From NCBI GenBank assembly GCA_964195715.1, contig CAXMRU010000057.1:5015-69014 (forward strand): DNA of 64,000 bases, given 5' to 3'. The notes below the pieces were generated by a model. The model had not been told where the DNA came from, did not search any database, and saw only the letters and a program-made list of their open reading frames with translations. This stretch comes from Akkermansiaceae bacterium. Its GTDB lineage: Bacteria > Gemmatimonadota > Gemmatimonadetes > Palauibacterales > Palauibacteraceae. This document shows, one piece after another, positions 6,412 to 43,381 of the stretch; positions within the stretch are counted from its first letter, which is position 1; each line of letters begins with the position of its first letter. The position numbers and the translations under genes were made by a program.

Positions 6412-7803
6412 CTACTTCGGAGCCTCGAAGTCCGTCCAGTTGAGGAGAGGCAACAACTGGTGCCTGCCTTCGTGTCGCCAGTCAGGCGGTGGCCACGCCA
6501 CTGAGCCGAGTGGCGCGATTCGGCCCACACCCAGACGAGTCGCGAGCACAGCGAGTTTCCGGAGTCCTTCCGCGCCAGAGAATCCGAACGTCTGGATCCT
6601 CCCCTCCAGGGGCCTCAGCACCTCTTCAAGGGTCTCGAGGTCCGGAACCCGGTGAACCCAGACTACGCGAGGCAGTGATTCTGTCCGGGCCGCCGGGCTC
6701 TCGCTGACCAGGATCGTCCAGGCCAGGGACTCGCCCGGCGCTTCGACTCCCAATCCTCCGTCCCCGTACCCTCCGAATTCAAACATCGCACGCGCCGAGC
6801 GGATCGCCACGGCTTCCTCCGCCGTCGGATCGGGAGGAGGGTGATCCCGGGTTCGCTCCTCGAGAGCGCCGGCGAGACGGCTCACGAATGCACCGGTAGC
6901 CAAGCCAACCACGTACACAAGGCGAGGCGACACGCAACCCTGCTGATCGTAAGCACATACGTCCCTGGCGAGGGCCGCAGCCGCTTCCTCCTGTGGAGTG
7001 TCCGGCAGCAAGACGGCCACGCCGGTTCGGGGACCGTACGAAATCAGGTCTGTATGCGCCGGCAGCGCGCCCCGCACAGCCTCCACCGCCGCAGCACCGC
7101 CGTACACCACGACCTTACCGGCCCATTTAGTCCACTCACGCCACGCCGCCGGGAAGTGCGATCCGGGCCACCATGTCGCAGCGAGCGAGCGACCCAGCAG
7201 TGGATCTTCCTCGGCCAGCAGACGAGCGAACATCGGGAGCAGCCCGGGCTCGGCCTCTGGCAGCTTGCACAGAACACCCGAGCGGGCCAGAAGAGCCCGG
7301 ATCGTGGCCGTAATCGCTACGCCGGGAACGTTGCCGGCAAGTACCTGCAGCACCACGGGCGCGCCGACGGCTCTACGCCGCCGGACGCCCGGACCTTCCC
7401 ATCGCTCATCCCGCACGAAGCCGTCGAGCACTGCGGGGCCGCCCAGTTCCGAGTCGACCAGTCCCGCGAGTGCGTCGGTCGTCCACGTCCGGGCCATCCC
7501 GTCCAGGGTGTCACGTATCAGGCGGTCGTCCCACCCGAGTTCGGCGTGAAGGAGCTCCCTCGTGGCAATGCCCGCGCTCCCTTCGGCCGTGAGCCGCGCG
7601 GCGGCGGCCCCGATCGCCTGGATCACGTCTGTGGTCGCCCGATGAGCCCGCGCTTCGAGCGCTCCCTCCCTGATGTGCGCCGCCACGATCCCGGCCTCCG
7701 TGCCTGACAGGGACGGGGCCCGGAAGGCGCTCCCGGCATGTGTGCGTCCCTCCAACCACTCGGTGGGCGTCGGAAGCCCCGGAAGGTGCCAGGCTTCAAA
7801 CAT
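6412..7803 (-). CDS. LuxC-like acyl-CoA (fatty acyl) reductase
   Basis: About 463 aa, start chosen at MFEAWHLPG. Aldehyde-dehydrogenase-like fold with the LuxC-type catalytic Cys context (YDQQGCVSPRLVYVV) and GNVPG. Overlaps the upstream LuxE-like gene by 8 nt. Confidence 0.6.
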   Translation of the reverse strand: MFEAWHLPGLPTPTEWLEGRTHAGSAFRAPSLSGTEAGIVAAHIREGALEARAHRATTDVIQAIGAAAARLTAEGSAGIATRELLHAELGWDDRLIRDTLDGMARTWTTDALAGLVDSELGGPAVLDGFVRDERWEGPGVRRRRAVGAPVVLQVLAGNVPGVAITATIRALLARSGVLCKLPEAEPGLLPMFARLLAEEDPLLGRSLAATWWPGSHFPAAWREWTKWAGKVVVYGGAAAVEAVRGALPAHTDLISYGPRTGVAVLLPDTPQEEAAAALARDVCAYDQQGCVSPRLVYVVGLATGAFVSRLAGALEERTRDHPPPDPTAEEAVAIRSARAMFEFGGYGDGGLGVEAPGESLAWTILVSESPAARTESLPRVVWVHRVPDLETLEEVLRPLEGRIQTFGFSGAEGLRKLAVLATRLGVGRIAPLGSVAWPPPDWRHEGRHQLLPLLNWTDFEAPK

Positions 7804-8914
7804 GCTCCTGCGCCTCCAGAAGCTCCGCGGTCGCCAGCGAGCACCCACGGGGCGGCGCTCCCTCCGTGCGGCCGATCCATTCGATTCCCTCACCGACGAT
7901 GCGGCCCCTGTCTTCAGTGAGCACCGAGCACACGCTGCCCAGGTTCGCCAGATCGTAGTGACACAGGATTCCGGTCTGGCCGTCCGGGAGCTCCTCGAGT
8001 GTCACGGGATCAAGCACCCACGACCGCAGCCACGGCGGACCCAGCAGCGGCACGCCTGGATCGCCATGGCCGTAGCGCTGCGACAGCAGTTCGGTCATCC
8101 CGAACTCGTTGACGATCGTCTCGAGCCGGAGACCCAGCTGGCCGCACAGACCTGTCAGAACGGCGGCGCGCTCCAGGCCCTCACGCGCCTTCACGCCTCC
8201 CGTATCCATCAGTCTGGATCCCGATGGGAGCGGGGACGTGATGGATCGTCCGTCCGTCAGCCGCTCCAGCCATTCAGCGAATCCGAGCGTCGTCCCCAGA
8301 AGGCACAGCGGCAGGTCCAACCGGACGGCGTACGCCACCACGCCGTCCAGCGCCGTCCAGTCGACTCCGTCCGCGGTCGCAACGCTGCCTCCAAGCTCAC
8401 TCGCGAAGCCCGCGCGAACGTCATCCAGCATCCAGCCGAGCGATGATGTCGGATCATACGTAAAGGATGGTGGTAAAGTCACTATGTTTGCTGCGACTTC
8501 ACCCTCGAGGACGAATGCGCGGAACGTGGCGCGAAGCGAAGCACGATACAGCTCCAGAGACCGGACCAGGTGACGCCCCCTCCGTGAAGACCCACGGCTC
8601 GTCCCACTCGTCAGGAATGTGAGCTTCGCCCCACTGGAAGGTCCGACGATCAGGTCCACCGCGCGAAAGGCAGCCGTCGGAACCGGTGGCACGTCCCTCC
8701 ACCCGGACACATCGCCGGGCCTCACACGTCGGGTTTCGCAGTACTTGCGGTATGTCGAGTTCTCCGCGAACTGCAATGCGAACGCGCGCCGCGCCCACTC
8801 ATTCAGCCGATCGTCGTCCCATTCGCTCCCACCCGGCATCCACCGATCGAACGCGGCCGCACACTCGGCCGCCAGTGAGTCGAAGTCGTTCCCAACCGGC
8901 GTGTGTATCGTCAT
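7796..8914 (-). CDS. LuxE-like acyl-protein synthetase (acyl-AMP forming)
   Basis: Start set at MTIHTPVGNDF. Adenylate-forming signature FLTSGTSRGSS. Overall resemblance to the LuxE acyl-protein synthetase family. About 372 aa. Confidence 0.6.
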   Translation of the reverse strand: MTIHTPVGNDFDSLAAECAAAFDRWMPGGSEWDDDRLNEWARRAFALQFAENSTYRKYCETRRVRPGDVSGWRDVPPVPTAAFRAVDLIVGPSSGAKLTFLTSGTSRGSSRRGRHLVRSLELYRASLRATFRAFVLEGEVAANIVTLPPSFTYDPTSSLGWMLDDVRAGFASELGGSVATADGVDWTALDGVVAYAVRLDLPLCLLGTTLGFAEWLERLTDGRSITSPLPSGSRLMDTGGVKAREGLERAAVLTGLCGQLGLRLETIVNEFGMTELLSQRYGHGDPGVPLLGPPWLRSWVLDPVTLEELPDGQTGILCHYDLANLGSVCSVLTEDRGRIVGEGIEWIGRTEGAPPRGCSLATAELLEAQEHV

Positions 8915-9041
8915 ACGCGAAATGTGTGCGCGGGAACCCGGAGCGACAAGCGGAGGACCTGCGGTGGGGAGGAAGTTGCCGGCGCGGGCACGGTCATGGT
9001 CATGGGCCAACTGGTCCCGCGCCCGCCGCACGTGTGCTGAT

Positions 9042-10355
9042 TCAGTGCGTATCCAACCTACCTGTGTGATGTTCTCCTTTACGTACCCACTTTACCTCCA
9101 CGGCATCTTCGTGTTCCGCATCGGCCAACACCTGACGTAACGTCGCTACGCTACTACAGTTCACCTTATCTACCTCAACCACGACGTCCCCATCTCGCAG
9201 GCCCATCCGATCCGCCGGAGTGTCCCGGATCACGCGCATCACCAGGAGGCCATCGTCCACCCCTTCGAAGTATTCCGCCAGGCTTCCGCCGAGCTCCCGG
9301 AATTCCGCTCCGGCCACTCTCATATCGCTGAAAAGCAGCGTCCGCAACTGGCCCGGAACGGGGCGATGCGCAACGTAATAAGCCCATTCTCCGCGGGGAT
9401 CGGTGCGCGTCGTCACGGACAGGGTCAGGCCCAGCGAATCGGTTCCCAGCGTCCGGACCTCGGCGCGCAGGCGGACCAGCGAATCAAGGTGCACCCGGGC
9501 TGACCGAAACGATGAATCCCGCACCCTGACCAGGCGCCTTGCGAGCTCCTCGTTTTCCCACACGTAACGTGGCAGATCCACTCGCACTTCCACGCGTGCT
9601 CCACTCTCCTCATCCTGGGTCACGTCTGCTTCGGACCGCTGGCCCTCGACGACCCTGGCCTGCGCCAACCTTCCGTCGTGCTCCCGCATTCTCTGCAGGA
9701 TTACGCCTGCCTTCTCCGGGTCCCCGACCTCGATCTTGAAGCTGCCCTCATCATCTTCATGGAAGAAGACGAATGCGTTACCGTGCGTACGAAGTGATTC
9801 CAGGCGAACCTCGACCTCATTCAATCGGGCTCGGAGGGAGGGGATCCGCACCACGCGCACGCCTCCTGACGCGTCCTCTGCGAGCTCCTCCGGAAGACCG
9901 AAGAACATCGTCCGCACGTTCATCCACGGATCGGCGGGACGCATTTCGGGCGTGACCCGGATCGTCATTCGGCCGGACGCCCGAGCCAGGCCGAGCTGCA
10001 CCGGCACACCGGCCTCCAGTCCGAGCAGAGCCGCCCGCCCCTCCAGCGTCGTGACGTCCAGTCCATCCACCGACAGCAGCGTGTCCCTTGCCTGCACACC
10101 GGCGAGATCGGCCGGGCCATTCACGACCACCGAGCTCACGACGGGGGGCTGACCACACCTTTCCTCGGCCCTCATGAGCGCATCGCACCGTTCTTCCAGC
10201 AGGACACCGATGCGGGCTTTCTCCTCCTGGACCCAGTTGACCTCTGGCTCCTGCGCTGACAGGCGGCTCGTTCCCGCGACTGTCAAGATCAGCATCGTGG
10301 CGACGACGGCCAGACTCGCTGACAGGCGTCTCATGTTGTGTCGCAACGTCTCCAT
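9042..10355 (-). CDS. secreted PDZ-domain protein (two PDZ domains)
   Basis: Signal peptide. Two PDZ-like segments (GLDVTTLEGRAALLGLEAGVPVQLGLAR and GLRDGDVVVEVDKVNCSSVATLRQVL). No protease catalytic triad recognised. Confidence 0.55.
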   Translation of the reverse strand: METLRHNMRRLSASLAVVATMLILTVAGTSRLSAQEPEVNWVQEEKARIGVLLEERCDALMRAEERCGQPPVVSSVVVNGPADLAGVQARDTLLSVDGLDVTTLEGRAALLGLEAGVPVQLGLARASGRMTIRVTPEMRPADPWMNVRTMFFGLPEELAEDASGGVRVVRIPSLRARLNEVEVRLESLRTHGNAFVFFHEDDEGSFKIEVGDPEKAGVILQRMREHDGRLAQARVVEGQRSEADVTQDEESGARVEVRVDLPRYVWENEELARRLVRVRDSSFRSARVHLDSLVRLRAEVRTLGTDSLGLTLSVTTRTDPRGEWAYYVAHRPVPGQLRTLLFSDMRVAGAEFRELGGSLAEYFEGVDDGLLVMRVIRDTPADRMGLRDGDVVVEVDKVNCSSVATLRQVLADAEHEDAVEVKWVRKGEHHTGRLDTH

Positions 10356-10425
10356 CCTATATCCCCATGCGGATTTTCATCCACTCGTTCGTCAAACAGC
10401 GTCCGCTCCACAGCCCCACGCTCCC

Positions 10426-11124
10426 TCAGTACTCGGATCCTGTCATGCGCAGGGTCTGATCCAATTGACCGGCCAGGTCCTCTCTCTCGTCTACCAGCTG
10501 GAACAAGAAGTTGTTGAGCACGGGATCCGCTGGAGCCTCGCGTAGTGCGTCGCGAGATGCATCGATCATCGCATCGAGATGCGTGATTCTCTCAGCGACC
10601 GCCGCGGGCCCGGCTTCCCACCTGTTCGCTTCGAAATCACCGTCTCGAAGCTGCTGCAGGTCTGCAACCGTCCGCAGGTATGCCTCGGCCGGCTCAATCA
10701 CCATCAGGGATTCGGGGGACGCATCCGTCAGCGGCCCCACGCTTCCATTCCGGTCATCGGCTACGGTCGCCGCACCCTGTGCTCCATCGGGTCCGGCATC
10801 GATTCTCTGACCCACCATCAGACCGGCAGCGAACAACGCCACCACGGCCGCCGCCTGCAGCGGCCAGCTCATCGCCTTACGCCAGATCGGTGAGACGGTC
10901 GCCGCTCGCCGAGTTTCCAGGCCCAGCTGCTCCTCGATGCGATCCCACTCGCCCTCCGGTGGCTCGAGATCGGGCAGTCCGGATAAGGCCATCCGCATAC
11001 GGCTCATCTGCTCGTACTCGCGAGCGCACTCCTCACAGTCAGCCACGTGCTCCAGCCCGCCGGGTACGCTCCCAGGGTCGTCGAGCAGTGCCGAGATCCG
11101 TTCTCTATTCAGATGCTCAGGCAT
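10426..11124 (-). CDS. anti-sigma factor, zinc-binding (ZAS/ChrR-like) with one TM helix
   Basis: N-terminal HVADCEECAREY (HxxxCxxC zinc motif). Central TM segment WPLQAAAVVALFAAGLMVG. Its 8-nt overlap with the upstream ECF sigma gene is typical of sigma/anti-sigma pairs. Confidence 0.65.
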   Translation of the reverse strand: MPEHLNRERISALLDDPGSVPGGLEHVADCEECAREYEQMSRMRMALSGLPDLEPPEGEWDRIEEQLGLETRRAATVSPIWRKAMSWPLQAAAVVALFAAGLMVGQRIDAGPDGAQGAATVADDRNGSVGPLTDASPESLMVIEPAEAYLRTVADLQQLRDGDFEANRWEAGPAAVAERITHLDAMIDASRDALREAPADPVLNNFLFQLVDEREDLAGQLDQTLRMTGSEY

Positions 11125-11665
11125 GATTACCCGCTTCGTTTCTCTCCCGGGCCGGCGCCAGCAGATTTCGCATGCGCGCCCGGGCTTTGTGCAACTGCGA
11201 TTTCGACGTTCCCACGGCCACCCCCATCCGACCCGCGATCTCTTCGTGCGTCAGGCCTTCCACGTCGTGCAGTACGAGGACCTTTCTATAGCCCGGCGAC
11301 AACTGGTCCATCGCCTGGCTGAGCACTTTCTGGTTCAGCACCGTCTCGTCCGTCGGCGGTGGAGACGACCGCGGTTCGGCAGCAGCCTCCACGTCCGGCC
11401 TCTTGCTCTGTCGTCGCAGCCGGTTCAGAGCCGCGTTCACCGCCAGACGATGCATCCAGGTGCCGAATGACGACTCTCCCCGGAACAGGTGCAGCTTCTG
11501 AAATGCTCGCACCCAGGCGTCCTGCGACACGTCCTCCGCGAGGTGGTCGTCACCGACCATCCTCCGAACCACGGAGTACACGCGGCCACTGTGCGCCGAG
11601 TAGAGTGCTGCCATCGCGCGGCGGTCACCCTTCCTGGCCGCCGCGATCAGCTGAACGTCAGACAT
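11117..11665 (-). CDS. ECF (sigma-70 family, group 4) RNA polymerase sigma factor
   Basis: 182 aa. Region 2 (DVSQDAWVRAFQKLHLFRGESSFGTWMHRLAVNAALNRLR) and region 4 HTH (LTHEEIAGRMGVAVGTSKSQLHKAR). Confidence 0.85.
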   Translation of the reverse strand: MSDVQLIAAARKGDRRAMAALYSAHSGRVYSVVRRMVGDDHLAEDVSQDAWVRAFQKLHLFRGESSFGTWMHRLAVNAALNRLRRQSKRPDVEAAAEPRSSPPPTDETVLNQKVLSQAMDQLSPGYRKVLVLHDVEGLTHEEIAGRMGVAVGTSKSQLHKARARMRNLLAPARERNEAGNHA

Positions 11666-11734: not shown

Positions 11735-12637
11735 TCAGTCCGCGGTGGGGTCGCCTTCCAGCCGCCGCATCAGCCACGGCGTCGCCAGGTAAGCGGCCAT
11801 CGCCACCATCAGCCCGACCATCGCATCGATCCCGTAGTGGAATCGCCCGTATACCGTCCCGAGGGCTAGAGACACCGCGAAGGGCGCCATGATCCAGAAG
11901 ACTCGCTTGCTCTCGCGCCCGGTAGCGAACCATGCCGACATGGTGGCCGCCACATGCGAGGAGGGGAACGCTGTGCCCTTGGAGGATCCGGACTCGAGGA
12001 TCGTGTGTACGAGCAAGAACAGCTTCCCGTCCGACGCCTCGCCGGCGATCTGCGGGAAGTCGTAGCGGGGACCCGCCACAGGAAAGACCGAAAAGCACAA
12101 ATAGCAGACGAAGAAGGCCAGGGCGATCGTGAACGAGGCCCGCTCCAGCGCCCTGGGCCCCTTCAGCAGGAATGCGGCCACCGCCGCTCCCGGCACGATA
12201 AGGTAGTACGACAAATACCCGAGGTGCAGCATCTCGGAGAACCAGAGGCGGCCGTACCAGTCGCTGAACACCATGGCCAGCTGGGTCCCGAACAACAATT
12301 CCTCCCACATCATCACCGTGGGATCGAAGTAGCCTGTCACGTGGAGCTGGTTCAGTGGCGCCAGTTCCAGGTACAGCAGCGGTGTAAGCGCGACCGGATA
12401 GAACAGCCGGAAGAACAGCACGAATCCGTTCGTCGGGAGCGTGAACGACGCCATCCACCAGATGAGTCCCATGGCGGCCAGGTGCAGCACGGCGATCCCG
12501 ACACCGAAGCCCGTGATGCTCGTCAGGGCAACAACACCCGTCGCCGCCAGATACGCCATCGTGAGGTAATCGACTGCGAGCGGCCCGCGGCTGCGCATTT
12601 CCGTTTCGGCTCTGAATCCCTTGATCACCTGAGCCAT
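11735..12637 (-). CDS. PAP2 / sphingomyelin-synthase-like integral membrane protein (candidate sphingolipid head-group transferase)
   Basis: Polytopic membrane protein. PAP2/SMS-type catalytic motifs PSSHVAAT and RFHYGIDAMVG (an HYxxD-type motif). Part of the tightly packed lipid operon. Confidence 0.55.
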   Translation of the reverse strand: MAQVIKGFRAETEMRSRGPLAVDYLTMAYLAATGVVALTSITGFGVGIAVLHLAAMGLIWWMASFTLPTNGFVLFFRLFYPVALTPLLYLELAPLNQLHVTGYFDPTVMMWEELLFGTQLAMVFSDWYGRLWFSEMLHLGYLSYYLIVPGAAVAAFLLKGPRALERASFTIALAFFVCYLCFSVFPVAGPRYDFPQIAGEASDGKLFLLVHTILESGSSKGTAFPSSHVAATMSAWFATGRESKRVFWIMAPFAVSLALGTVYGRFHYGIDAMVGLMVAMAAYLATPWLMRRLEGDPTAD

Positions 12638-13623
12638 CCGTGTTCACGGTACCAGCGACCGGTCTCCTCCATCGCCTCGCGCAGTCGCGTGGTGGCGCGC
12701 CACCCGAGTGAGGCTTCGGCTTCTCGCGGATCGGCCGTCCAGTCCAATCGCGAGAGGTCGTCCGCCGTACGGCGATCGAATTGCGGGGGCATCCGGACGA
12801 GTCGCGCCGCGGCCTCCGCCACAGTCCCACCAACCTGCCAGAGCGCGTTCGGAATCTTCACAAGGCGGACGGGCTTTCCTACGGCGTTGCCCAGCGCCTC
12901 GCCCATGTCGGCCCAGCTCACGATCTCGGGGCCCACGATGGGGATTGGCTTGAGGTCCACATCCGGACGCGCCACGGCACGAATGACCGCATCGGCCACG
13001 TCCTTCACGTACACCGGCTGCAGCCGACCCTTGCTGGTCGGCACCGGCAGCAGGCCGGTCTTCGCCACCTTGAACAGGTTCAGCGAGTCCTCGTCTCTCG
13101 GACCGTAGATGCCTCCGGGCCGCAGGATCACACCCATCATCGCCCCGGTCTGCTCCGAGAGCACCTGGAACAGACGGCGTTCGCCGGCCAGCTTGCTCTC
13201 GCCGTATGCGCTCGTCGGCCGATCGGCGGCGGGGCCGCTGTCGCCGGCCCGACGGTCCGGGCCGCGCGCCGCCAGGCTGCTGACGAGGACGAAGCGGCGC
13301 ACTCCGGCGTCAACGGCCCCGAGCGCCAGCCCCTGCGTGCCCTCGGCGTTCACCGCGAAGTAGTCGGCATCCGACTTCGCGCGGGTCAGACCCGCCGAGT
13401 GCACCACGACATCAACTCCTTCGAGCGCAACTGCCAGTTCCGCGGCAGACCGCACGTCTGCCGTCACACGCTCTATTGGGAGAGACTCGATCCACCTGAG
13501 ATTGCTGGTCTTCCGCACAGTGCACCGAACAGCCCACCCCTCGACGAGGAGTGCCTCGGCCACGTGGCTGCCCAGAAATCCCGTAGCCCCGGTGAGCAGA
13601 ACGGTGTGGGAAGTGCCGGACAC
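12625..13623 (-). CDS. NAD(P)-dependent epimerase/dehydratase-family SDR (candidate 3-ketosphinganine / ceramide reductase)
   Basis: N-terminal Rossmann VLLTGATGFLGSHV and an extended-SDR fold. 5-nt gap to the upstream N-acyltransferase-like gene and 13-nt overlap with the downstream PAP2 gene. Confidence 0.75.
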   Translation of the reverse strand: MSGTSHTVLLTGATGFLGSHVAEALLVEGWAVRCTVRKTSNLRWIESLPIERVTADVRSAAELAVALEGVDVVVHSAGLTRAKSDADYFAVNAEGTQGLALGAVDAGVRRFVLVSSLAARGPDRRAGDSGPAADRPTSAYGESKLAGERRLFQVLSEQTGAMMGVILRPGGIYGPRDEDSLNLFKVAKTGLLPVPTSKGRLQPVYVKDVADAVIRAVARPDVDLKPIPIVGPEIVSWADMGEALGNAVGKPVRLVKIPNALWQVGGTVAEAAARLVRMPPQFDRRTADDLSRLDWTADPREAEASLGWRATTRLREAMEETGRWYREHGWLR

Positions 13624-13628
13624 CGGAC

Positions 13629-14762
13629 TCAGAGTTCCCTATCGTACATGCGGAATCGCTTGTACGCCGTCGAGCCCAGTTTCTCCAGCGGCTTTCGCAT
13701 CGGGTAGTTGTGCTCGAGGATCCACCCGAATTCCCCGGCGACTATGCCCTTCGCGGAGCCCTCACGAAAGATCCGCAGGTACAGGAGGTTGTCGATCCCC
13801 TTGTGCCGGAATTCCGGCACAAGGCCCAGCGTCAGCACCCGGCACATGTCGATGCTCTTCGCCCGGTGCAGCACTTTCAGAAGACCGAACGGAAACAAGC
13901 GACCACGCGCCTTGATCAGGGCCTGATTGTAGTCCTTCAGCCACAGGGCGAAGCCTATGGGCTCCCCGTCCTCGTTCTCCGCGAAGATGACCTGCTCGGG
14001 ATCCTTCATCACGGCCACCTTGAGCTCGTGGGCCATGAACCGGATCTCGTCATCCGTCATCGGAACGAAGCCCCAGTTCTCTTCCCACGCCTTGTTGTAC
14101 ACGTACAAGACGCGTTCGAGCTCGGCCGCGAAGTCTTCCTTGCGCAATGTGCGAAGGGACACGTTCAGTCTCTTCGAGAGCCGTTCCTCTCGCTTGAGCA
14201 GGAATTCCGGTGGACTGTTGTTGTCCAGGTAGTAGGCGACCATGCCCATGGCGGCGTGGAACCCCGCATTCTCGATCAGGTCCTCGTAGTAGTCGGGGTT
14301 GTACGGCATCATGATGGTCGGTGGACGATCGAACCCCTCGACCAGCAGCGCGGCGCTCTCGTTCGTAGAGAAGTTGGCCGGGCCCCGTATCACCTCGAGA
14401 CCGCGATCTCGCAGCCAATCGGATGCGGTGTCCAGGAGCTCGTTTGCCACTTTCTGCTCGTCCACGCACTCAAAGAACCCGAAGAACCCTACGGGCTCGT
14501 CGTGGTAGGCGACGTGGTTCCGATTATGGATTGCGACGATCCGACCGACCGTTTCGCCACCTCGCATGGCGATGTACGGCTGGACCTCGGAGTGCTTGTG
14601 GAAAGGGTGCTTCCCCCGATCGAACATGACCTTCATGTCGCGGAGCAGGGGCGCGACCCAGTTCGGGTCTCCCTCGTAGATGCGATACGGCAGGTCAAGA
14701 AACCGGCGGAACTCCTTCTTGCCGTCCGCCGGAATGACTTGTACGTCCGGCGACCCCGTCAC
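13629..14762 (-). CDS. N-acyltransferase-like protein (candidate bacterial ceramide synthase)
   Basis: About 377 aa if started at a GTG that overlaps the serine palmitoyltransferase (Spt) gene's TGA stop as GTGA. The longer ORF would overlap Spt by 300 nt. The function is inferred mainly from operon context with Spt and the reductase. The acyl-CoA N-acyltransferase fold was not verified. Confidence 0.45.
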   Translation of the reverse strand: MTGSPDVQVIPADGKKEFRRFLDLPYRIYEGDPNWVAPLLRDMKVMFDRGKHPFHKHSEVQPYIAMRGGETVGRIVAIHNRNHVAYHDEPVGFFGFFECVDEQKVANELLDTASDWLRDRGLEVIRGPANFSTNESAALLVEGFDRPPTIMMPYNPDYYEDLIENAGFHAAMGMVAYYLDNNSPPEFLLKREERLSKRLNVSLRTLRKEDFAAELERVLYVYNKAWEENWGFVPMTDDEIRFMAHELKVAVMKDPEQVIFAENEDGEPIGFALWLKDYNQALIKARGRLFPFGLLKVLHRAKSIDMCRVLTLGLVPEFRHKGIDNLLYLRIFREGSAKGIVAGEFGWILEHNYPMRKPLEKLGSTAYKRFRMYDREL

Positions 14763-15961
14763 GTCACCTCTATCCCGTGTCCGAGGACCCCGAACTTCTT
14801 GCCGACCCGTGCGAGTTGCTCGAGCACGAAGTCGAGTTGCTCGTCGGTGTGGGTCGCCATGTAGCTGGTACGCAGGCAGCACCTGCCCTCGGGGACGGCC
14901 GGTGGCGCCACCGGGTTCGTGAAGACCCCGGCGTCGAACAGTTCCCGCCAGATCAGGAACGTCTGCTCTACCGGACCGATGAGAATTGGAATGACGGGCG
15001 TTTCCGTGCGCCCGATATCGAAGCCCAGAATCGTAAGCTCCTTCATCATCCGGTGCGTATTGGCCCACAGCCGTTCCTGCCGCTCCGGCTCGGTACGGAT
15101 GATCTCCAGGGCCTTGATGACGGTCGCGACGGACGCAGGAGGCATGCTGGCGCTGAAGATCAGCGCCCGCGCGTTGTTCTGCAGGTAGTCGATAACCAGG
15201 GCATCACCTGCGACGAAGCCACCGATCGAGGCGAGCGACTTACTGAATGTACCGCTGATAAGGTCCACCTCGTCGGTCAGGCCGAAGTGGGCCGCCGTGC
15301 CCGCGCCGTGCGGCCCGAGCACGCCCAGGGAGTGAGCGTCATCCACCATGATGGCCGCCGAGTATTTCTTAGCCAGCGGGACCAGGTTGGGAAGATCGGC
15401 GATGTCGCCTTCCATGCTGTACACGCCGTCCACGACGATCATCTTGCCACGATCGCCCTTCACTGCCTCGAGCAGTCGCTCGAGATGGTCGAAGTCAGCA
15501 TGTCGGAACCGCTGGATGTCGCCGAAGCCAAGTCGCGCACCGTCCTGTATGCATGCGTGGTCCAGCTTGTCCAGGAAGACCGTGTCGTTGCGCGCTATCA
15601 GGGCCCCGATGGTACCGAGGTTTGTCTGATAGCCGGTGCTGAAGACGAGCGCCGCTTCCTTGTTTACGAAATCGGCCAGATCTTCTTCCAGCTGGTCGTG
15701 CAGATCGAGGTTCCCGTTCAGGAAACGGCTTCCCGTACAGCCGCTGCCGTACTTGTCGAGAGCCGCCTTGGCAGCCTCGATGATCCTGGGGTCGTGAGTA
15801 AGCCCCATGTAGTTGTTGGAACCCACCATGACCTTCGTGTGGCCGTCGATGACGACTTCGGTGTCGGCCGAAGACTCGATTCTCTGGAAGTACGGATACA
15901 GCCCCGCCGCCCGCAGCTCCCGGGTGATGGTGAAGTTCGCGCACTTCTCGAACACATGCAT
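14759..15961 (-). CDS. spt: serine palmitoyltransferase-like alpha-oxoamine synthase (PLP-dependent)
   Basis: Start set at MHVFEKCANF. Very close to Sphingomonas Spt by eye: GSNNYMGLTHDP, GSGCTGSRFLNGN, VFSTGYQTNLG, RFRHAD, GVYSMEGDIA, GTFSKSLASIGGFV (PLP-lysine). About 400 aa. Confidence 0.85.
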   Translation of the reverse strand: MHVFEKCANFTITRELRAAGLYPYFQRIESSADTEVVIDGHTKVMVGSNNYMGLTHDPRIIEAAKAALDKYGSGCTGSRFLNGNLDLHDQLEEDLADFVNKEAALVFSTGYQTNLGTIGALIARNDTVFLDKLDHACIQDGARLGFGDIQRFRHADFDHLERLLEAVKGDRGKMIVVDGVYSMEGDIADLPNLVPLAKKYSAAIMVDDAHSLGVLGPHGAGTAAHFGLTDEVDLISGTFSKSLASIGGFVAGDALVIDYLQNNARALIFSASMPPASVATVIKALEIIRTEPERQERLWANTHRMMKELTILGFDIGRTETPVIPILIGPVEQTFLIWRELFDAGVFTNPVAPPAVPEGRCCLRTSYMATHTDEQLDFVLEQLARVGKKFGVLGHGIEVT

Positions 15962-16104
15962 GCTGTGTCGACCCTTGAACGAGTGGCGGAGACTCGCGCT
16001 GCAGATTCGCAGGCTTGACCAAGTGAAAAAAAGGTACCTGAGGAAACGCGGGCGAGCAAGCAAGTTGCCCGTTCTGACGCGGCTCTCCGACGCGGCGAGA
16101 GCCC

Positions 16105-17250
16105 GTGGAGAGCAGCCGCTTGCCCACGCGACGGCATAGGCTCATCCTGCGCGTTGTGACTCGCAACCGATGCACCGACAGGCTTCGAGGGGCCCTCCCC
16201 TTTTCGCTCCTCACCCTCGCGCTGGGCGGCTGCGCCAGCACGGCCGGGCCGGTCGCGGGACCGGCTGGTGGCACTTCCGAAGAGGTGCTCTCCGCTCCGG
16301 TCGTGGACCCCGCGATCGAAGCGACCGCAGACACCCCGATTCCGGACGCGGTGGACTCCGTAGCCTCGCCGGGACTCGATCTCGATTCTCTCGTCGCCCT
16401 GATCCGGTCCGAGGCAGCACACGAGAGACCGCGTTCAATTCTTCCGTTCGGCGTCGCCTGGACGCCCGTCCAGCCGATCGAGGGATCGGCGATCGTCTTC
16501 AGGGTGATGCAACCCCGTGGCGGACTCGAGCCTGAAGCTGTCGCCGGCCGGTTCGCGGACGGCGTCGTCCGGTTCGGACGAGCCAGGCACACCTGGCTCG
16601 GCTTCGCAGCCGTGCCGATCGGCACGAGCGGCATTCTTCAACTCGATCTCGAGTTTCGGTTCGGCGACGGATCGATGTATCAGCAACAGGTTGGCATCGA
16701 AGTCGCGCCCAGGGTGTGGGAGCAGACTTCCCTGAGCGTCGCCCCGAGATTCTCCTCTCCACCGCCCGAGGTTCAGGATCGGATCGCCCGGGACCGGAAG
16801 CAGTTCCGCGCGGTGCTGGATTCCGCTTCGCCCGAATGGCTGCTCGACGGCCCCTTCGCTCTACCCAGGCCCTTCGACGTGACGGCCGAGTTCGGCCAGG
16901 AGCGCGTGTTCAACGGAGAGATGCAGAGCCGCCACACCGGACTCGACCTGCGGGGCCCGGTCGGTGAGCCCGTTCATGCAGCCGGTCGGGGCCGTGTCGT
17001 GCTGACAGGCGACTTCTACTTCTCGGGAAACGGCGTCTTCCTGGACCACGGCCTCGGGGTCTATACGGGGTACTTCCACCTGTCCGAGATTCTGGTGCCC
17101 GAGGGGGAGATGGTCGAGACCGGCGAGCTCATCGGTCGCGTCGGAGCGACGGGCCGCGTGACCGGACCTCACCTGCACTGGTCCTTGTGGGTGGACGGAA
17201 CCGGCCAGGACGCCGGCAGCCTGCTGGAAGTGGAGATACCGCTGCCCTGA
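16105..17250 (+). CDS. M23 (LytM) family peptidase lipoprotein
   Basis: Lipobox LLTLALGGCAS. C-terminal M23 motifs HTGLDLRGPVGEPVHAAGRGRVV and GPHLHWSLWVDG. Confidence 0.7.
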   Translation: MESSRLPTRRHRLILRVVTRNRCTDRLRGALPFSLLTLALGGCASTAGPVAGPAGGTSEEVLSAPVVDPAIEATADTPIPDAVDSVASPGLDLDSLVALIRSEAAHERPRSILPFGVAWTPVQPIEGSAIVFRVMQPRGGLEPEAVAGRFADGVVRFGRARHTWLGFAAVPIGTSGILQLDLEFRFGDGSMYQQQVGIEVAPRVWEQTSLSVAPRFSSPPPEVQDRIARDRKQFRAVLDSASPEWLLDGPFALPRPFDVTAEFGQERVFNGEMQSRHTGLDLRGPVGEPVHAAGRGRVVLTGDFYFSGNGVFLDHGLGVYTGYFHLSEILVPEGEMVETGELIGRVGATGRVTGPHLHWSLWVDGTGQDAGSLLEVEIPLP

Positions 17251-17476: not shown

Positions 17477-19120
17477 ATGACACGGATCGCACTGGTGCTG
17501 GGTGGCGGCGCGTCGCTCGGCTCTTATATCGGCGGAGCGGTGACGGAGATCATCAGAGCCGTCGAGGGCAATCGTCAAAGAGAGACGGTCGTTATCGACG
17601 TGATCACGGGCGCCTCGGCAGGTGCGCTGAACGCAGCCCTCGCCGCACGTTGCCTGACGGTGAACCGACACTTGCTCCCGTGGATCGAGCGGGCGTGGGT
17701 CGACGGCGCGGATGCATCCGTTCTCCTGAACCCGGCTCGGCCGGAACGGGAGGGCTGGCTCGATATCTCGGTTCTCGACGAGCTCACGCGAACCCTCGTC
17801 GATTCGGACGCGGCTTCCGACGACGGCGCCTCGAAGGCGGCAGGCAAGTCTGTACGGCTGGGCTTCACCCTCGCCAATCTGTACGGTGTACCTTACGACT
17901 ACCGGTACCGCTTTCTGAATGAGCCCGAGCGGTCGTTCGGTGCGCGCGTTCACACCGACAACATCCGATTCGATCTGACTACGAAGAGTCGGGCCGGTAA
18001 TCCAGTATGGGGAGAGATTGCGGGTGCCGCTGTCGCTTCCGCGAGTTTTCCGTTCGCCTTCCCGTCTCGCCGGATCGGCCGACGCAAGGCCGACTATCCG
18101 GGAGCGCGGCTGAGTGCCGGACCCGACGGCAAAGTCGACATGTGGTACCTCGACGGAGGGCTGTTCGACAACGCTCCCCTCGGGCTCGCCCGCGACCTGG
18201 TCGAGCTCGAGACTGGCCACCGGAACGACGATCGGCGCTACCTGTTCGTAGAGCCGGGCTTCGAGAGCTCGGGCCCGGGTCCTCTCGGTTCCGACGGTCC
18301 ACCCGGCACGCTCACGGGCATGGCTTCAGCACTTGCGCGCGCGGTTCTCGGACAGGGCGCAGCCCGCGACTGGATGGTGGCCAACCGGATCAACTCGCGT
18401 CTCGAGATTCTGCAGGCTCTCGTGAAGCGGTTACCCGAGCTCGCTCCGGAACTGACCGATCCGCAGGCCCTGGCTCTTGGTCGGTATATCGGCGAGCTGG
18501 CGGAACACGTCGCCGAGATCCAGGTGGCTGCGGACGGAGGCGACGTCGAGGGCGCAGATGACCCGGTCGTGGACTATCTCGACTCGCAGGTCGAGCGCAT
18601 CGAGATCGATCCGGCTTACTCCGGGACCCTGTCGCGCATCGATTCGCGCGCCGGCCGTGCCCGTCTCGCGAAGCTGATTTTCGTGCTCGAAGCCGCGGGG
18701 GGACTGCAGGACAAGGACGTCCTGCCTCTCTACCTCGTCGCGCCGGAGACCAGCGAGTCGCTGTCGGGCGACTTCCTGGGCCACTTCGGCGGCTTTTTCA
18801 ACCGGGAGTGGCGCGCAAACGACTTCCGGGCCGGCAGGCGTGATGCCCGCCGGGTCATCGAGGAAACTCTGCCTGACGTGATTTCGTACGATCCGGGGGA
18901 CAAAGCTGATTACCGGGTCGAGAAGATCGACCCGAGTTTCGCTTCGATTCCCACCGCGGGCCGAGCCCGTCTGAAGGATCTGGTCGATGCCGAAGCGGAC
19001 CGCGTGTTGTCTGAGCTGCGGCCAGGACCGATCGCTGCCGCTTTCGGTTGGGCGTGGAAGCCCGTCGTTCGGCGGTGGGCGGCGGAGCGCACCATGACCG
19101 CCCTGCGCGGCGCGCGCTGA
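17477..19120 (+). CDS. patatin-like phospholipase family protein
   Basis: GGGASLGSYIGG oxyanion region, GASAG serine nucleophile (GxSxG), catalytic Asp in DGGLFDNAP. 547 aa with a long C-terminal extension. Confidence 0.8.
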   Translation: MTRIALVLGGGASLGSYIGGAVTEIIRAVEGNRQRETVVIDVITGASAGALNAALAARCLTVNRHLLPWIERAWVDGADASVLLNPARPEREGWLDISVLDELTRTLVDSDAASDDGASKAAGKSVRLGFTLANLYGVPYDYRYRFLNEPERSFGARVHTDNIRFDLTTKSRAGNPVWGEIAGAAVASASFPFAFPSRRIGRRKADYPGARLSAGPDGKVDMWYLDGGLFDNAPLGLARDLVELETGHRNDDRRYLFVEPGFESSGPGPLGSDGPPGTLTGMASALARAVLGQGAARDWMVANRINSRLEILQALVKRLPELAPELTDPQALALGRYIGELAEHVAEIQVAADGGDVEGADDPVVDYLDSQVERIEIDPAYSGTLSRIDSRAGRARLAKLIFVLEAAGGLQDKDVLPLYLVAPETSESLSGDFLGHFGGFFNREWRANDFRAGRRDARRVIEETLPDVISYDPGDKADYRVEKIDPSFASIPTAGRARLKDLVDAEADRVLSELRPGPIAAAFGWAWKPVVRRWAAERTMTALRGAR

Positions 19121-19150: not shown

Positions 19151-19474
19151 ATGGCCGACCTCAAGAAAATCGCTCTCTCGATGCAGCAGTTGTTCCTGCT
19201 GATCGTGGTGGTGGCCGTAGTGTTCTTCGCGTTCTTGAACCTGGATTCGGTCACGATTGACCTGTTCTTCACCACGGTAACCACGAGTATCGCCCTCCTC
19301 CTGCTCGTGCCCCTGGCCGCGGGAATGCTCCTCGGCTGGCTCGGCGGTCGCCTGCGCGGCAGGAAGAAGGAGCAGGCGAAGCTCGGCGCCGGCCCGGCGG
19401 AGTTGCCGGCCGGTGACGAGGCCGTGAAAGACGTGGACTGGGAGAACCTGGACCTCGACAAGATCGAGGTCTAG
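19151..19474 (+). CDS. LapA-family (DUF1049) small inner-membrane protein
   Basis: 107 aa with two TM helices and the typical LapA N-terminus LFLLIVVVAVVFFAFLN. Confidence 0.55.
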   Translation: MADLKKIALSMQQLFLLIVVVAVVFFAFLNLDSVTIDLFFTTVTTSIALLLLVPLAAGMLLGWLGGRLRGRKKEQAKLGAGPAELPAGDEAVKDVDWENLDLDKIEV

Positions 19475-40705: not shown

Positions 40706-41491
40706 TCAGGTCCCTTCCACAAGATAATCGAGCGGGTCCACGGGTACGCCCTGTCGCTCGATCTCGACGTGCAGGTGCGGAGCGGTCGATCGGCCGCTGT
40801 TTCCCGACAGGGCAATCACCTCTCCTACCTCCACCGAGTCGCCCGGGCCTACGAACAGCCATGAGTTGTGCGCGTACAAGCTGCTCAGTTCATCATCGTG
40901 TGCGACTCGAACGTATAGTCCGTACTCCGGGTCGTCCCCCGTCTCGGAGACCCGCCCGGTACGAGACGTGCGCACGTACGAACCCACCGGCACGGCGATG
41001 TCCACGCCCACATGCCCGTCCGGCGGAGCGGCAGTCGTGTCCCCGAAATTCCGCGTCACGAAGCCCTGTTCGACCACGGGCCACACAAAGCCCGCGCTGG
41101 CTTCCTGTTCACTTACGCGGCGCTCGCTCGCTTCCTTCTCAGACAATGGAGGGAGCAGAATGTCACGTTGCGACCTTCCAAGCTCTCCTCCCATCACCAC
41201 TCTCAGCTGCCGGTACTCGGCCTCGAGGCGCTCAACACGCTCTGCTACGACCCTCATCGCCGCATTTTCACGCTGCAAGTCGGAGACCTCCGCTTCCAGA
41301 GCCGCAATTTCGTCCCCGGAAGCCAGGTTGCCTACCCACCGGCCGGCGCCGAAGAAGGCTGCGCCGAGGGCGGTCAACAGCACCGTTGCCAGCAGTGTCA
41401 CCTTCGCGCGCGACAGCGCCACTGTGCGGGACTGCACTTCTCCTTCCCGCACCACGATCAGCGTCCAGCGCCGGCGTCCTTCCGCGTTCAT
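40706..41491 (-). CDS. M23 (LytM) peptidase with N-terminal TM helix and coiled coil
   Basis: TM segment TLLATVLLTALGAAFFGAG. Coiled coil. M23 motifs HVGVDIAVPVGSYV and SGRSTAPHLHVEI. ATGA overlap with the parB gene's stop. Confidence 0.75.
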   Translation of the reverse strand: MNAEGRRRWTLIVVREGEVQSRTVALSRAKVTLLATVLLTALGAAFFGAGRWVGNLASGDEIAALEAEVSDLQRENAAMRVVAERVERLEAEYRQLRVVMGGELGRSQRDILLPPLSEKEASERRVSEQEASAGFVWPVVEQGFVTRNFGDTTAAPPDGHVGVDIAVPVGSYVRTSRTGRVSETGDDPEYGLYVRVAHDDELSSLYAHNSWLFVGPGDSVEVGEVIALSGNSGRSTAPHLHVEIERQGVPVDPLDYLVEGT

Positions 41492-42387
41492 CGTTCTCCG
41501 AACAGCTCGCCGGCGTCAGCCGCGTCGAGAAGTGCGCGCGTCACGCGTTCGAATTCGTCCGGATCATGAAACGGAATTCGGATTTCGCCCTGGTTGCGCG
41601 CGCGCAGCGTCACCTTGACGTTCGTCCCATACGCGCGGGACAGCAGCACGGCCGCCTTGCGGGCGACTGGGTCTTCGCGCGCCGGTCCTCGCTTACCGCC
41701 CGGGGGTCCTCGCTTCTTGCCAGTTCGTGCCCGGGACTCGGTCTCGCGTACCGACAGCCCCTTCGCTGCAACTTCCCGCGCGAGCGCTACCTGATCCGCC
41801 TCTCCCTCAACCGACAGAATGGCCCGGGCGTGCCCGGCGGTGATCGCCCCTTCGCTCAGCAGGTCACGAACTGCAGCGGGAAGCGTGAGAAGCCGCAGCG
41901 CGTTCGCCACGGTCGAGCGGTCCCGTCCCACTCGCTTCGCCGCTTCTTTCTGAGTGAGACCGAAACCGTCGATCAACTGCTGGTAACCCACGGCCTCCTC
42001 GAGCGGGCCCAGATCCTCCCTCTGGAGGTTCTCCACGAGTGCCACGACCAGCATCTGTTCGTCGCTGAGTGGCCTGACTATCGTGGGCGCCTTTTCCCAA
42101 CCGAGGCGCGTGAGCACCCGCCACCTACGCTCGCCCGCCACCAGCTCGAAATCGAGGCCGGCCGGCCGGACTACCAGGGGCTGCAGCAAGCCGTTTTCAC
42201 GGATCGACGCCTCGAGCTCGTCGAGGGCCTCGCCCTCGAATTGCCTGCGCGGCTGGAACGGGTTGGGTCGGATACGGCCTACCTCGATCTCCCGGATCGG
42301 CATTTTGCCGGACGCCGGCTCCTCGAGGTATTCCCCGAGAAGGGCTCCGAGTCCTTTGCCGAGACGCCGTGCTTCAGGTTTGGGCAA
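41488..42387 (-). CDS. parB: chromosome partitioning protein ParB/Spo0J
   Basis: TTG start preceded by AAGGGGG. It overlaps the parA stop. ParB box I/II (RLGKGLGALL; PIREIEVGRIRPNPFQPRR; GLLQPLVVRP; GERRWRV). HTH. 299 aa. Confidence 0.85.
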   Translation of the reverse strand: MPKPEARRLGKGLGALLGEYLEEPASGKMPIREIEVGRIRPNPFQPRRQFEGEALDELEASIRENGLLQPLVVRPAGLDFELVAGERRWRVLTRLGWEKAPTIVRPLSDEQMLVVALVENLQREDLGPLEEAVGYQQLIDGFGLTQKEAAKRVGRDRSTVANALRLLTLPAAVRDLLSEGAITAGHARAILSVEGEADQVALAREVAAKGLSVRETESRARTGKKRGPPGGKRGPAREDPVARKAAVLLSRAYGTNVKVTLRARNQGEIRIPFHDPDEFERVTRALLDAADAGELFGER

Positions 42388-43171: not shown

Positions 43172-43327
43172 CTGTACTCCGCACTAAAACGTTGTTATTA
43201 AACAAGTTACCGCTACGTCTATGTCGGGGCAGCGTCGCCTCGAGAACCTCAACCCGCTCGGAGTGGATCTTCCTGTTCCACGGGGCGAGGAATATACGGC
43301 GGGTCCGTGTGTGAGCCAAGAAAACAA

Positions 43328-43343
43328 TGTTGCACGTGAAACA
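43328..43343. promoter_or_regulatory. parS site (ParB-binding centromere), copy 1
   Basis: TGTTGCACGTGAAACA matches the parS consensus TGTTNCACGTGAAACA. It is immediately upstream of parA. Confidence 0.7.
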
Positions 43344-43365
43344 TCTTGCGACTCCGCCGTTCCTG

Positions 43366-43381
43366 TGTTGCACGTGAAACA
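43366..43381. promoter_or_regulatory. parS site, copy 2
   Basis: Identical 16-mer TGTTGCACGTGAAACA, 38 bp from copy 1. Confidence 0.7.

Follow-up and report, generated by a model that had tools for sequence, protein, structure and literature searches.

Can a bacterium encode the whole route from serine to a membrane phosphosphingolipid in one compact operon? The question is raised by four minus-strand genes in the window, the complete 64-kb stretch of Gemmatimonadota DNA that was analysed. The three-enzyme ceramide route of bacteria was reportedly defined in Caulobacter only in 2021-2022. To our knowledge, bacterial head-group attachment has been described in few cases, the kinase/Cpg route of Caulobacter and the inositol route of Bacteroides that involves BT_1522. 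We consider it likely that the genes reported here form a translationally coupled operon, spt–bcerS–cerR–aur1-like, that makes a complete phosphosphingolipid.

Layout of the four-gene operon

All four ORFs are present between positions 15961 and 11735, as read from the sequence. They are listed below in gene order, after the intergenic region that precedes them.

15962–16104, no strand assigned: divergent intergenic region between spt and an M23-peptidase gene, 143 bp, read from sequence
14759–15961, minus strand: spt, ATG at 15961, TGA stop at 14761–14759, 400 aa
13629–14762, minus strand: bcerS (GNAT), GTG start at 14762–14760, stop at 13631–13629, 377 aa
12625–13623, minus strand: cerR (SDR), GTG start at 13623, stop at 12627–12625, 332 aa
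11735–12637, minus strand: gene for an Aur1-like PAP2_3 protein, ATG start at 12637, stop at 11737–11735, 300 aa

The tight packing described in the original prediction can be read directly at every junction. The spt stop codon is overlapped by the GTG start of bcerS as GTGA, a 5-nt gap separates the bcerS stop from the cerR GTG, and cerR and the PAP2 gene overlap by 13 nt. An in-frame ATG also occurs at codon 14 of the PAP2 gene, and its use would leave a 26-nt gap in place of the 13-nt overlap; starts downstream of codon 23 are excluded because conserved residues begin at that codon. At the other end, the upper limit of 16063 first given for the operon corresponds only to the longest possible, TTG-started spt ORF, and in the 400-aa form similarity to known Spt proteins starts at residue 5.

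All four ORFs are genuine genes, as opposed to reading frames that arose by chance. Their GC3 is 0.74–0.85 against a GC2 of 0.41–0.52 in each case, homologue matches of the GNAT and PAP2 proteins reach E values of 1e-150 to 1e-255, and the identical gene order, with overlaps of 4–41 nt, is found again in many independent contigs. Upstream of the operon, non-coding DNA is confined to the 143-bp region at 15962–16104, where the promoter presumably lies. Between the four genes, sigma-70 consensus matches and terminator-like sites do not exceed the number expected by chance, and a search for Rfam elements returned none.

Three candidate ceramide enzymes

By homology, the product of the first gene is a serine palmitoyltransferase that falls in the Spt clade of the alpha-oxoamine synthases. 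It matches Pfam Aminotran_1_2 (E 1e-55), and among NCBIfam models the top score, 553.7 bits, goes to NF047600, serine palmitoyltransferase (CFB), ahead of bioF (395.7), Kbl (373.7), ALAS (256.8) and CqsA-type (228.6) models. The score lies below the equivalog cut-offs of the Spt models (553.7 against 640 for NF047600, 415.9 against 500 for NF047599), which were built for particular lineages (CFB, beta- and alpha-proteobacteria) that do not include Gemmatimonadota. Among PDB entries, the best match is the Spt of Sphingobacterium multivorum (3A2B/8GUH, 470.6 bits), to which the protein is 56% identical over a 385-aa alignment with zero gaps; CFAT (262 bits), Kbl (257), SulA (236) and BioF (232) follow. 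The PLP lysine is K241, in GTFSKSLAS, and this motif, DDAH and FSASM are identical or nearly so to those of the S. multivorum enzyme. The Spt-like character first proposed for the 400-aa protein thus survives a comparison with BioF and Kbl, both outscored by Spt models and structures. The suggested resemblance to Sphingomonas Spt does not: the nearest type is that of Sphingobacterium and other Bacteroidota (56%), and identity to the alphaproteobacterial, Caulobacter-type Spt is about 40% (E 3e-102). A Bacteroidota-type Spt would account for the lack of an acyl carrier protein (ACP) gene in the operon.

The second gene product, proposed earlier as a candidate ceramide synthase, is by alignment a homologue of the bacterial ceramide synthase of the CCNA_01212 type, a predicted GNAT-type N-acyltransferase. 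BLASTP aligns it end to end with the bCerS of Caulobacter vibrioides (34% identity, E 8e-71, 383 columns; the proteins are 377 and 384 aa long). The reference, L003:2150-3304, was found through the published ccna_01212 primer (PMC11087976). The match passes the filter of PMC11334938 (E ≤ 1e-30, coverage ≥ 50%), for which database sizes differ. The protein has a weak Pfam GNAT match and, like the Caulobacter reference, matches no NCBIfam model. Its gene adjoins spt and cerR, and the 4-nt overlap with spt is also seen at L025, L026 and L028.

For the third gene, the evidence supports a homologue of the ceramide (3-keto) reductase CerR, of the CCNA_01222 type. The original suggestion of an SDR with this role is borne out to the extent that BLASTP returned full-length matches to two CerR references, one at L009:1400-2353 (31% identity, E 4e-37) and one from a Caulobacter MAG, locus L016 (33%, E 2e-40). 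The former carries the exact NA1000 primer and was located with primers taken from PMC11087976. The protein has an extended SDR/NAD-dependent epimerase fold (Pfam Epimerase, E 4.6e-29), the Rossmann motif TGATGFLG, which the reference shares, and a YxxxK motif (YGESK; YAASK in the reference). Its best NCBIfam match is HpnA, at 121 bits over the full length against a cut-off of 367.65, and the Caulobacter CerR reference likewise has a sub-threshold HpnA match as its best. The assignment combines pairwise homology with synteny because no curated CerR model exists, and it leans on synteny since the SDR scores about equally against the HpnA model and CerR.

The Aur1-like protein and the proposed product of the operon

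The fourth gene encodes a membrane protein of about eight helices. Its best Pfam family is PAP2_3 rather than the general PAP2 model PF01569, and PAP2_3 also holds Aur1 and Ipt1. The catalytic triad is formed by H228 (PSSH), H267 and D271 (HYGID). Together with S226, these residues are invariant in 28 orthologues and 105 divergent relatives, and they align to S253, H255, H294 and D298 of Aur1; in the alignment of the 105 relatives, the sole invariant residues are Y141, P186, P225, S226, H228, H267 and D271. The profile of these relatives matches yeast Aur1 over nearly its whole length (E 4.5e-10), with AFPSSH aligned to AFPSLH (H255) and VYgrfHYavD to MYLTHHYFVD (H294, D298). The homology covers about 270 residues, N-terminal helices included, and so is not confined to the PAP2 core common to the superfamily. 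Aur1 also ranks first among the fold matches, and the fold may be closer to IPC synthase than to lipid phosphatases. Pairwise identity to Aur1 is only about 13–17%. H228 and H267 are 39 residues apart, as are H255 and H294 of Aur1 (PMC13133130).

These features support assigning the protein to the branch of the PAP2 superfamily whose members transfer phospho-head groups onto sphingolipids. The original prediction of an SMS-like head-group transferase holds for the branch, and the resemblance is to Aur1/IPC synthase and not to SMS: Pfam PAP2_C, the C-terminal SMS domain, scores 22.1 bits against a cut-off of 27, and the family profile of the 105 relatives has no sequence match in SMSr. We regard the protein as a candidate ceramide phospho-head-group transferase, which would probably work by transferase rather than hydrolase chemistry. 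Ceramide has no phosphate group and the cassette encodes no kinase to add one, so a PAP2-type enzyme could act on the product of the first three genes only as a transferase.

Might the protein be a lipid phosphate phosphatase that follows a ceramide-forming trio? Its substrate could be ceramide-1-phosphate, a sphingoid-base phosphate or a phosphorylated head-group intermediate, or else an unrelated lipid such as PGP or undecaprenyl-PP, with co-transcription serving envelope homeostasis. The C1/C3 motif separates phosphatases from transferases in the LPT family. The phosphatase C1 motif (KxxxxxxRP) is absent from the protein, which has no Lys seven residues before R191, and in the 105-relative alignment neither Lys nor Arg is invariant at a C1- or C3-type (SR) site; R191 and K220 are invariant among the 28 close orthologues only and are lost in the larger set. 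The family profile does match PAP2 phosphatases, but only in the last 60–80 residues, which hold C2 and C3, at E 7e-6 or worse, and the count of about eight helices agrees with Aur1. With no kinase in or beside the cassette at any locus examined, we judge a phosphatase unlikely.

Returning to the transferase, the pathway that we infer, including its substrates, step order, membrane side and head group, would begin with condensation of L-serine and a long-chain acyl thioester to 3-ketosphinganine by Spt. The GNAT-type bCerS would N-acylate this product, and the SDR CerR would reduce the 3-keto group to give dihydroceramide, with acylation placed before reduction by analogy with the Caulobacter model. 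The logic of condensation, N-acylation and keto-reduction that had been recognised at the outset is reinforced by the homology of the first three genes to proven Caulobacter enzymes. The Aur1-like enzyme would then act through its His-His-Asp triad, removing a phospho-alcohol from a donor glycerophospholipid and attaching it at the C1 hydroxyl of ceramide, with diacylglycerol set free. PE or PG would be the most plausible donor; a marine Gemmatimonadota isolate is reported to have them as its main lipids. PI is another possibility. TLC, the only method used on the cultured marine Gemmatimonadota, gave PE, PG, DPG and an aminolipid, with no sphingolipid noted (PMC11651109). The 64-kb window contains no inositol-phosphate synthase (MIPS) and no PI synthase. 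The cassette probably gives a complete membrane sphingolipid. More tentatively, and with confidence somewhat short of even, we suggest that the PAP2_3 subfamily found immediately after cerR in several phyla could be an unrecognised ceramide phospho-head-group synthase, one that may draw on an abundant bacterial phospholipid such as PE or PG to form ceramide phosphoethanolamine or ceramide phosphoglycerol.

A capnine-type sulfonolipid, in which cysteate replaces serine before reduction and N-acylation, would be built by enzymes of these same three types. The condensing enzymes of the two pathways share homology, and SulA and CFAT are among the PDB matches to the first protein. However, these cysteate acyltransferases score 236 and 262 bits against 471 for Spt, and a Lys at position 281 of SulA, 30 residues after the PLP lysine, has been proposed to discriminate SulA from Spt. 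The protein carries Ala271 at this position, within FSASMPP (FSASMTP in S. multivorum Spt), and this motif also occurs in cassettes of other lineages. Capnine has a sulfonate in place of the C1 hydroxyl of ceramide, so an Aur1-type transferase would find no acceptor. No cysteate synthase gene was found nearby. The SulA/CapB pathway, which had been offered as an alternative reading of the locus, was rejected on the missing Lys and on a best match to Spt and not to a cysteate acyltransferase; we consider it highly improbable. That the first enzyme is BioF-, Kbl- or CqsA-like and the cluster makes some other amino-ketone or acylated amine is just as remote: the sub-cut-off Spt score would fit, as would the strong BioF and Kbl scores expected inside one superfamily, but Spt models and structures outrank these families and ALAS by 150–250 bits, the alignment with a biochemically characterised Spt is gapless at 56% identity, and the partner genes are homologous to proteins required specifically for ceramide synthesis.

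Conservation, implications and known systems

The cassette is conserved across lineages. Within Gemmatimonadota, the four-gene order is kept at 51–58% PAP2 identity while the flanks change, and at 34–37% PAP2 identity it recurs in unrelated contexts in Candidatus Eisenbacteria and three other assemblies. The order spt–bcerS–cerR is unchanged in five further lineages. Distant PAP2_3 relatives were found immediately after a CerR homologue in seven of nine cases, five of the nine in the identical four-gene cassette (one being Candidatus Eisenbacteria); the other two stand alone, away from sphingolipid genes. At L034 the SDR–PAP2 pair occurs by itself, and at L036 a C-terminal CerR fragment lies beside the PAP2 gene.

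Gene overlap ties the Aur1-like family to cerR in at least two phyla, and the cassette offers a concrete and easily tested candidate for the ceramide head-group step. Probable sphingolipid production is extended to Gemmatimonadota, an abundant and little-cultured phylum of soil and sea. If the PAP2_3 subfamily does attach the head group, phosphosphingolipids would be made in Gemmatimonadota, in Eisenbacteria and in related uncultured lineages, and the four genes would be a self-contained, portable cassette for a complex sphingolipid. Such a unit needs no ACP gene of its own and could be transferred to E. coli for production of that kind of lipid. Routine annotation misses the pathway because NCBIfam has no model matching the bCerS-type or PAP2_3 protein, and its models for the CerR-type SDR all score below cut-off. 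Public annotations of bcerS, cerR and the fourth gene read only 'N-acetyltransferase', 'epimerase' and 'PAP2 phosphatase'.

How does the operon compare with known systems? It follows the enzyme logic of the Caulobacter ceramide pathway, and it encodes homologues, over their full length, of Spt (CCNA_01220), bCerS (CCNA_01212) and CerR (CCNA_01222) of Caulobacter crescentus (40%, 34% and 31–33% identity). Caulobacter-type Spt, however, depends on an ACP of its own (AcpR) and on the acyl-ACP synthetase AasR; the genes for both lie next to it, and both are missing from this operon. Caulobacter bcerS lies about ten genes from spt (CC_1154 and CC_1162), whereas the genes overlap here, and Caulobacter attaches its head group with a set of enzymes (the Cpg genes) that includes a ceramide kinase and a CDP-alcohol transferase, where this operon has an Aur1-like enzyme. 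The closest characterised Spt, that of S. multivorum and the Bacteroidota, has identical PLP-lysine and FSASM motifs and is likewise without a dedicated ACP gene, although it belongs to another phylum and the operon Spt stays under the cut-off of its model. The three ceramide genes are scattered in Bacteroidota (PMC11334938) and clustered here.

For the head-group step, animal SMS1/2 and SMSr are the more distant comparison, given the sub-cut-off PAP2_C match and the failure of the family profile to detect SMSr, which has fewer helices aligned and extra catalytic residues that Aur1 lacks (PMC13133130). Yeast Aur1, the catalytic subunit of IPC synthase, shares the PAP2_3/LPT fold, about eight helices, the H-H-D triad, AFPS(S/L)H and HY..D, albeit at low pairwise identity, and no Kei1-type partner is known here. 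BT_1522 is encoded apart from spt, in a cluster for inositol lipids that includes MIPS and PIP synthase, whereas this operon has no inositol-lipid genes nearby. Nevertheless, BT_1522 is an AUR1 homologue required for phosphoinositol-dihydroceramide in Bacteroides thetaiotaomicron (PMC9246714) and, by its published description, provides a precedent for a bacterial Aur1 homologue that adds a phospho-head group to dihydroceramide.

Gene layout, conservation and setting

The prediction of four tightly packed minus-strand genes is confirmed by direct reading of the sequence and by codon-position GC. The spt stop overlaps the next start in the tetranucleotide GTGA, a 5-nt gap separates the GNAT and SDR genes, and the SDR and PAP2 genes overlap by 13 nt. 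GC3 is 0.74-0.85 in all four ORFs (genome GC 64%), and the codon-position GC pattern is typical of real genes.

15961 (ATG) to 14759 (TGA), minus strand: gene 1, spt, 400 aa, as read from the sequence
14762-14760 (GTG start) to 13629, minus strand: gene 2, GNAT gene (bcerS), 377 aa
13623 (GTG) to 12625, minus strand: gene 3, SDR gene (cerR), 332 aa
12637 (ATG) to 11735, minus strand: gene 4, PAP2 gene, 300 aa

The lower end of the span originally given, 11735-16063, stands. The upper end does not, as 16063 merely marks the longest TTG-started ORF and the 400-aa form is homologous to Spt from residue 5 onwards. Codon 14 of the PAP2 gene, also an in-frame ATG, could be the start instead, which would replace the overlap with a 26-nt gap; starts beyond codon 23 are excluded because residues are conserved from position 23 in 28 orthologues. 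Promoter, terminator and Rfam scans of the operon region gave no usable result. Close GNAT and PAP2 homologues come from MAGs annotated as Gemmatimonadota or 'marine benthic group'.

The Spt-GNAT-SDR-PAP2_3 order, with 4-16-nt overlaps, is kept in Gemmatimonadota contigs with 57-58% identical PAP2 proteins. At the Gemmatimonadota locus L026, the upstream neighbours differ (an HD-domain protein and an alpha/beta hydrolase), and two additional ORFs, one of 149 aa and one encoding a Ser/Thr protein kinase that carries a BTAD domain, separate the PAP2 gene from an ECF sigma factor (9229-11547). Because this lineage differs on both sides, the four genes form a stable unit.

We also examined the contigs that encode nine PAP2_3 relatives further removed (≤51% identity to the window PAP2). 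The complete cassette occurs in five of them, in otherwise unrelated surroundings (L031, L033, L035, L037 and L039); L031 is from Candidatus Eisenbacteria, with a PAP2_3 of ~36% identity. By BLASTP, the unannotated middle ORFs of L031 and L035 are homologues of the Caulobacter ceramide synthase bCerS (33-37% identity), and the Spt proteins checked, from L031, L033 and L035, contain FSASMPP. L034 (6046-7951) carries the CerR-like SDR and PAP2_3 pair alone, with a 41-nt overlap and no adjoining Spt or bCerS, which suggests that reductase and head-group enzyme are the tightest functional pair of the cassette. In L036 the contig end cuts the locus, and a C-terminal CerR fragment abuts PAP2. The remaining two PAP2_3 genes (L030, 8001-8870; L038, 6001-6846; ~36-37% identity) are isolated: one belongs to a 4.7-Mb genome, and the other sits directly upstream of an mraZ/dcw cluster. 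Neither has Spt, bCerS or CerR genes within 6-8 kb, so the PAP2_3 family is not exclusively tied by position to ceramide genes.

Genes flank the cassette on both sides.

6412-7893, minus strand: LuxC-like acyl-CoA reductase
7796-9031, minus strand: LuxE-like acyl-protein synthetase
9042-10355, minus strand: PDZ-domain protein
10426-11124, minus strand: putative anti-sigma protein without a Pfam match, overlapping the ECF sigma gene
11117-11665, minus strand: ECF sigma factor, starting 70 nt downstream of the PAP2 gene
16105-17250, plus strand: M23 peptidase, divergent from spt
17477-19120, plus strand: patatin-like phospholipase with a DUF3376 segment, divergent from spt
19151-19474, plus strand: small LapA-domain membrane protein, divergent from spt

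The ECF sigma, anti-sigma and PDZ trio follows the cassette in L025, L028 and L033, and lies two genes further on in L026. This trio is a possible envelope-stress module with a link to the lipid operon. We leave it out of the cassette, as its conservation is limited to Gemmatimonadota and it is missing from cassettes elsewhere. LuxE and LuxC are a fatty-aldehyde-forming enzyme pair. They keep their position in several Gemmatimonadota loci (L025, L026, L028/L029), but we rejected them as an acyl-donor supply within the cassette because they are missing from L033 and from every cassette outside Gemmatimonadota. The M23 peptidase and patatin genes occupy the same position in L025 and L028, and it may not be by chance that a phospholipase gene adjoins a membrane-lipid operon.

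Further along, positions 40706-53575 look like the chromosomal origin region.

40706-53575: yidD and rnpA lie within this interval
41488-42522: parB
42374-43171: parA
46578-47942: mnmE
47990-50056: yidC
50411-50578: rpmH
50354-52171: ORF containing dnaA
52472-53575: dnaN

The cumulative GC-skew minimum falls at ~50-52 kb, and GC drops to 0.578 at 52-54 kb. Gene content and skew together therefore place the sphingolipid operon ~35 kb from the replication origin and dnaA.

The probable ceramide-forming enzymes

Gene 1 had been predicted to be a serine palmitoyltransferase rather than BioF or Kbl, and the comparisons bear this out. Its best NCBIfam model is NF047600, the Bacteroidota-type serine palmitoyltransferase, at 553.7 bits (below the model's equivalog cut-off of 640), versus 395.7 for bioF and 373.7 for Kbl. 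Of the solved structures, Sphingobacterium multivorum Spt scores highest (470.6 bits; 56% identity over 385 gapless residues), followed by alphaproteobacterial Spt (~304), cysteate acyltransferases (262 and 236), Kbl (257) and BioF (232). Identity to Caulobacter-type Spt is 40% (E 3e-102). The proposed Sphingomonas-type affiliation is thus replaced by the Sphingobacterium/Bacteroidota type. No ACP gene (PF00550) is present in any cassette locus examined, which fits a Bacteroidota-type Spt, not the alpha-/beta-/gammaproteobacterial type that requires AcpR and AasR.

Could the product be a sulfonolipid (capnine), as the original prediction allowed? According to Radka et al. (PMC9304779), the active sites of the cysteate acyltransferase SulA and of Spt differ at a single residue: SulA has Lys281, 30 residues past the PLP lysine, where Spt has Ala. 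Gene 1 has its PLP lysine at K241 and an Ala at position 271, within FSASMPP (FSASMTP in S. multivorum Spt). The sulfonolipid pathway is not supported because gene 1 matches Spt best, far above the cysteate acyltransferases, and carries Ala271; additionally, capnine lacks the C1 hydroxyl that a head-group transferase would need.

For genes 2 and 3, Caulobacter references were located via the cloning primers for ccna_01212, ccna_01222 and ccna_01220 (supplement, Uchendu et al., PMC11087976). The bcerS primer matched Caulobacter vibrioides DSM 9893 (L003:2150-3304, 384 aa), and the cerR reverse primer had no match in the metagenome collection. A degenerate spt-start pattern led to further Caulobacter-type loci, L016, with an aasR-cerR-acpR-spt block, and L009, whose cerR carries the exact NA1000 primer; locus L001 has neither spt nor cerR within its extent.

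Gene 2, put forward as a candidate ceramide synthase, aligns end to end with Caulobacter bCerS (34% identity, E 8e-71). Gene 3, the candidate ceramide reductase, aligns over its full length with two CerR references (31%, E 4e-37; 33%, E 2e-40), including TGATGFLG and YxxxK. Both proposals are upheld at the level of homology. The assignment of gene 2 as a putative bCerS is solid, and that of gene 3 as a putative CerR is good, drawing partly on synteny because extended SDRs are alike. Neither bCerS nor CerR has a curated model. In NCBIfam (release 20), neither the window GNAT nor Caulobacter bCerS matches a family, and the best match of both the window SDR and Caulobacter CerR is sub-threshold HpnA. 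The public names are therefore merely 'N-acetyltransferase' for the GNAT and 'phosphatase PAP2 family protein' for gene 4.

The Aur1-like fourth protein

Gene 4 had been described as a PAP2/SMS-like head-group transferase. The PAP2-type membrane protein stands; the likeness to animal sphingomyelin synthases does not. Its Pfam family is PAP2_3 (PF14378, 56.5 bits), which also contains Aur1/Ipt1, and general PAP2 and SMS-type PAP2_C fall below cut-off. FPVAGPRY, GSSKGTAFPSSH and GTVYGRFHYGID are unchanged across 28 Gemmatimonadota orthologues. Searched exhaustively, a set of 1.84 billion representatives yielded 2,289 relatives. When 105 of them (27-49% identity) are aligned, solely Y141, P186, P225, S226, H228, H267 and D271 are invariant; they include the His-His-Asp triad of the lipid phosphatase/phosphotransferase superfamily, and no phosphatase C1/C3 Lys or Arg is conserved.

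Single-sequence and shallow-alignment searches against PDB sequences found nothing meaningful; Aur1 was reached by the 105-sequence profile alone. The best solved protein for this profile is yeast Aur1 (E 4.5e-10, profile 12-279 versus Aur1 42-313), with AFPSSH aligned to AFPSLH (H255) and the HY..D motif to H294/D298; the spacing between the two histidines, 39 residues, is the same in both proteins. PAP2 phosphatases match over just the C-terminal 60-80 residues (E 7e-6 or worse), and SMSr was undetected among solved proteins. An AlphaFold model (pLDDT 78, pTM 0.80, ~8 helices) has Aur1 as its top Foldseek match (probability 1.0, 303 columns), ahead of another IPC synthase entry and of SMSr.

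Proposed pathway and known systems

Because ceramide is free of phosphate and the cassette comes without a kinase, transfer is a more plausible activity for gene 4 than hydrolysis. From the observed homology, motifs and gene linkage we infer the substrates, order of steps, membrane side and head group of a candidate pathway. Spt would condense serine with a long-chain acyl thioester to 3-ketosphinganine, bCerS would then N-acylate it, and CerR would reduce the product to dihydroceramide. The Aur1-like enzyme would form a phospho-histidine intermediate from a glycerophospholipid, then pass the phospho-alcohol to the ceramide C1-OH and release diacylglycerol, the two-step scheme described for Aur1 (PMC13133130). 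Phosphoethanolamine or phosphoglycerol are first guesses for the head group, because a cultured marine Gemmatimonadota isolate contains PE, PG, cardiolipin and an aminolipid (PMC11651109) and the window encodes no inositol-phosphate synthase or PI synthase. We consider it very probable that genes 1-3 make ceramide, and likely, with less assurance, that gene 4 is the head-group transferase; the two together seem reasonably likely. The phospho-sphingolipid reading of the operon is thus supported with three corrections: the Spt subtype, an Aur1-like rather than SMS-like fourth enzyme, and no sulfonolipid.

The ceramide trio is a known bacterial pathway, and frequent clustering of its genes has been reported (PMC11334938). 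In a partial library, and thus as a weak negative, we found no description of an spt(-bcerS-cerR) operon that includes a PAP2- or Aur1-like gene, none of sphingolipids in Gemmatimonadota, and no identified bacterial ceramide-phosphoethanolamine synthase. The cassette, unsurprising to a specialist, reveals a pathway overlooked by routine annotation and is a compact, directly testable candidate for an under-characterised head-group step. In Caulobacter that step follows a kinase/CDP-alcohol route, unrelated to an Aur1-like enzyme. The precedent is BT_1522 of Bacteroides thetaiotaomicron, an AUR1 homologue that acts on dihydroceramide but, unlike gene 4, belongs to an inositol-lipid cluster, away from spt (PMC9246714).
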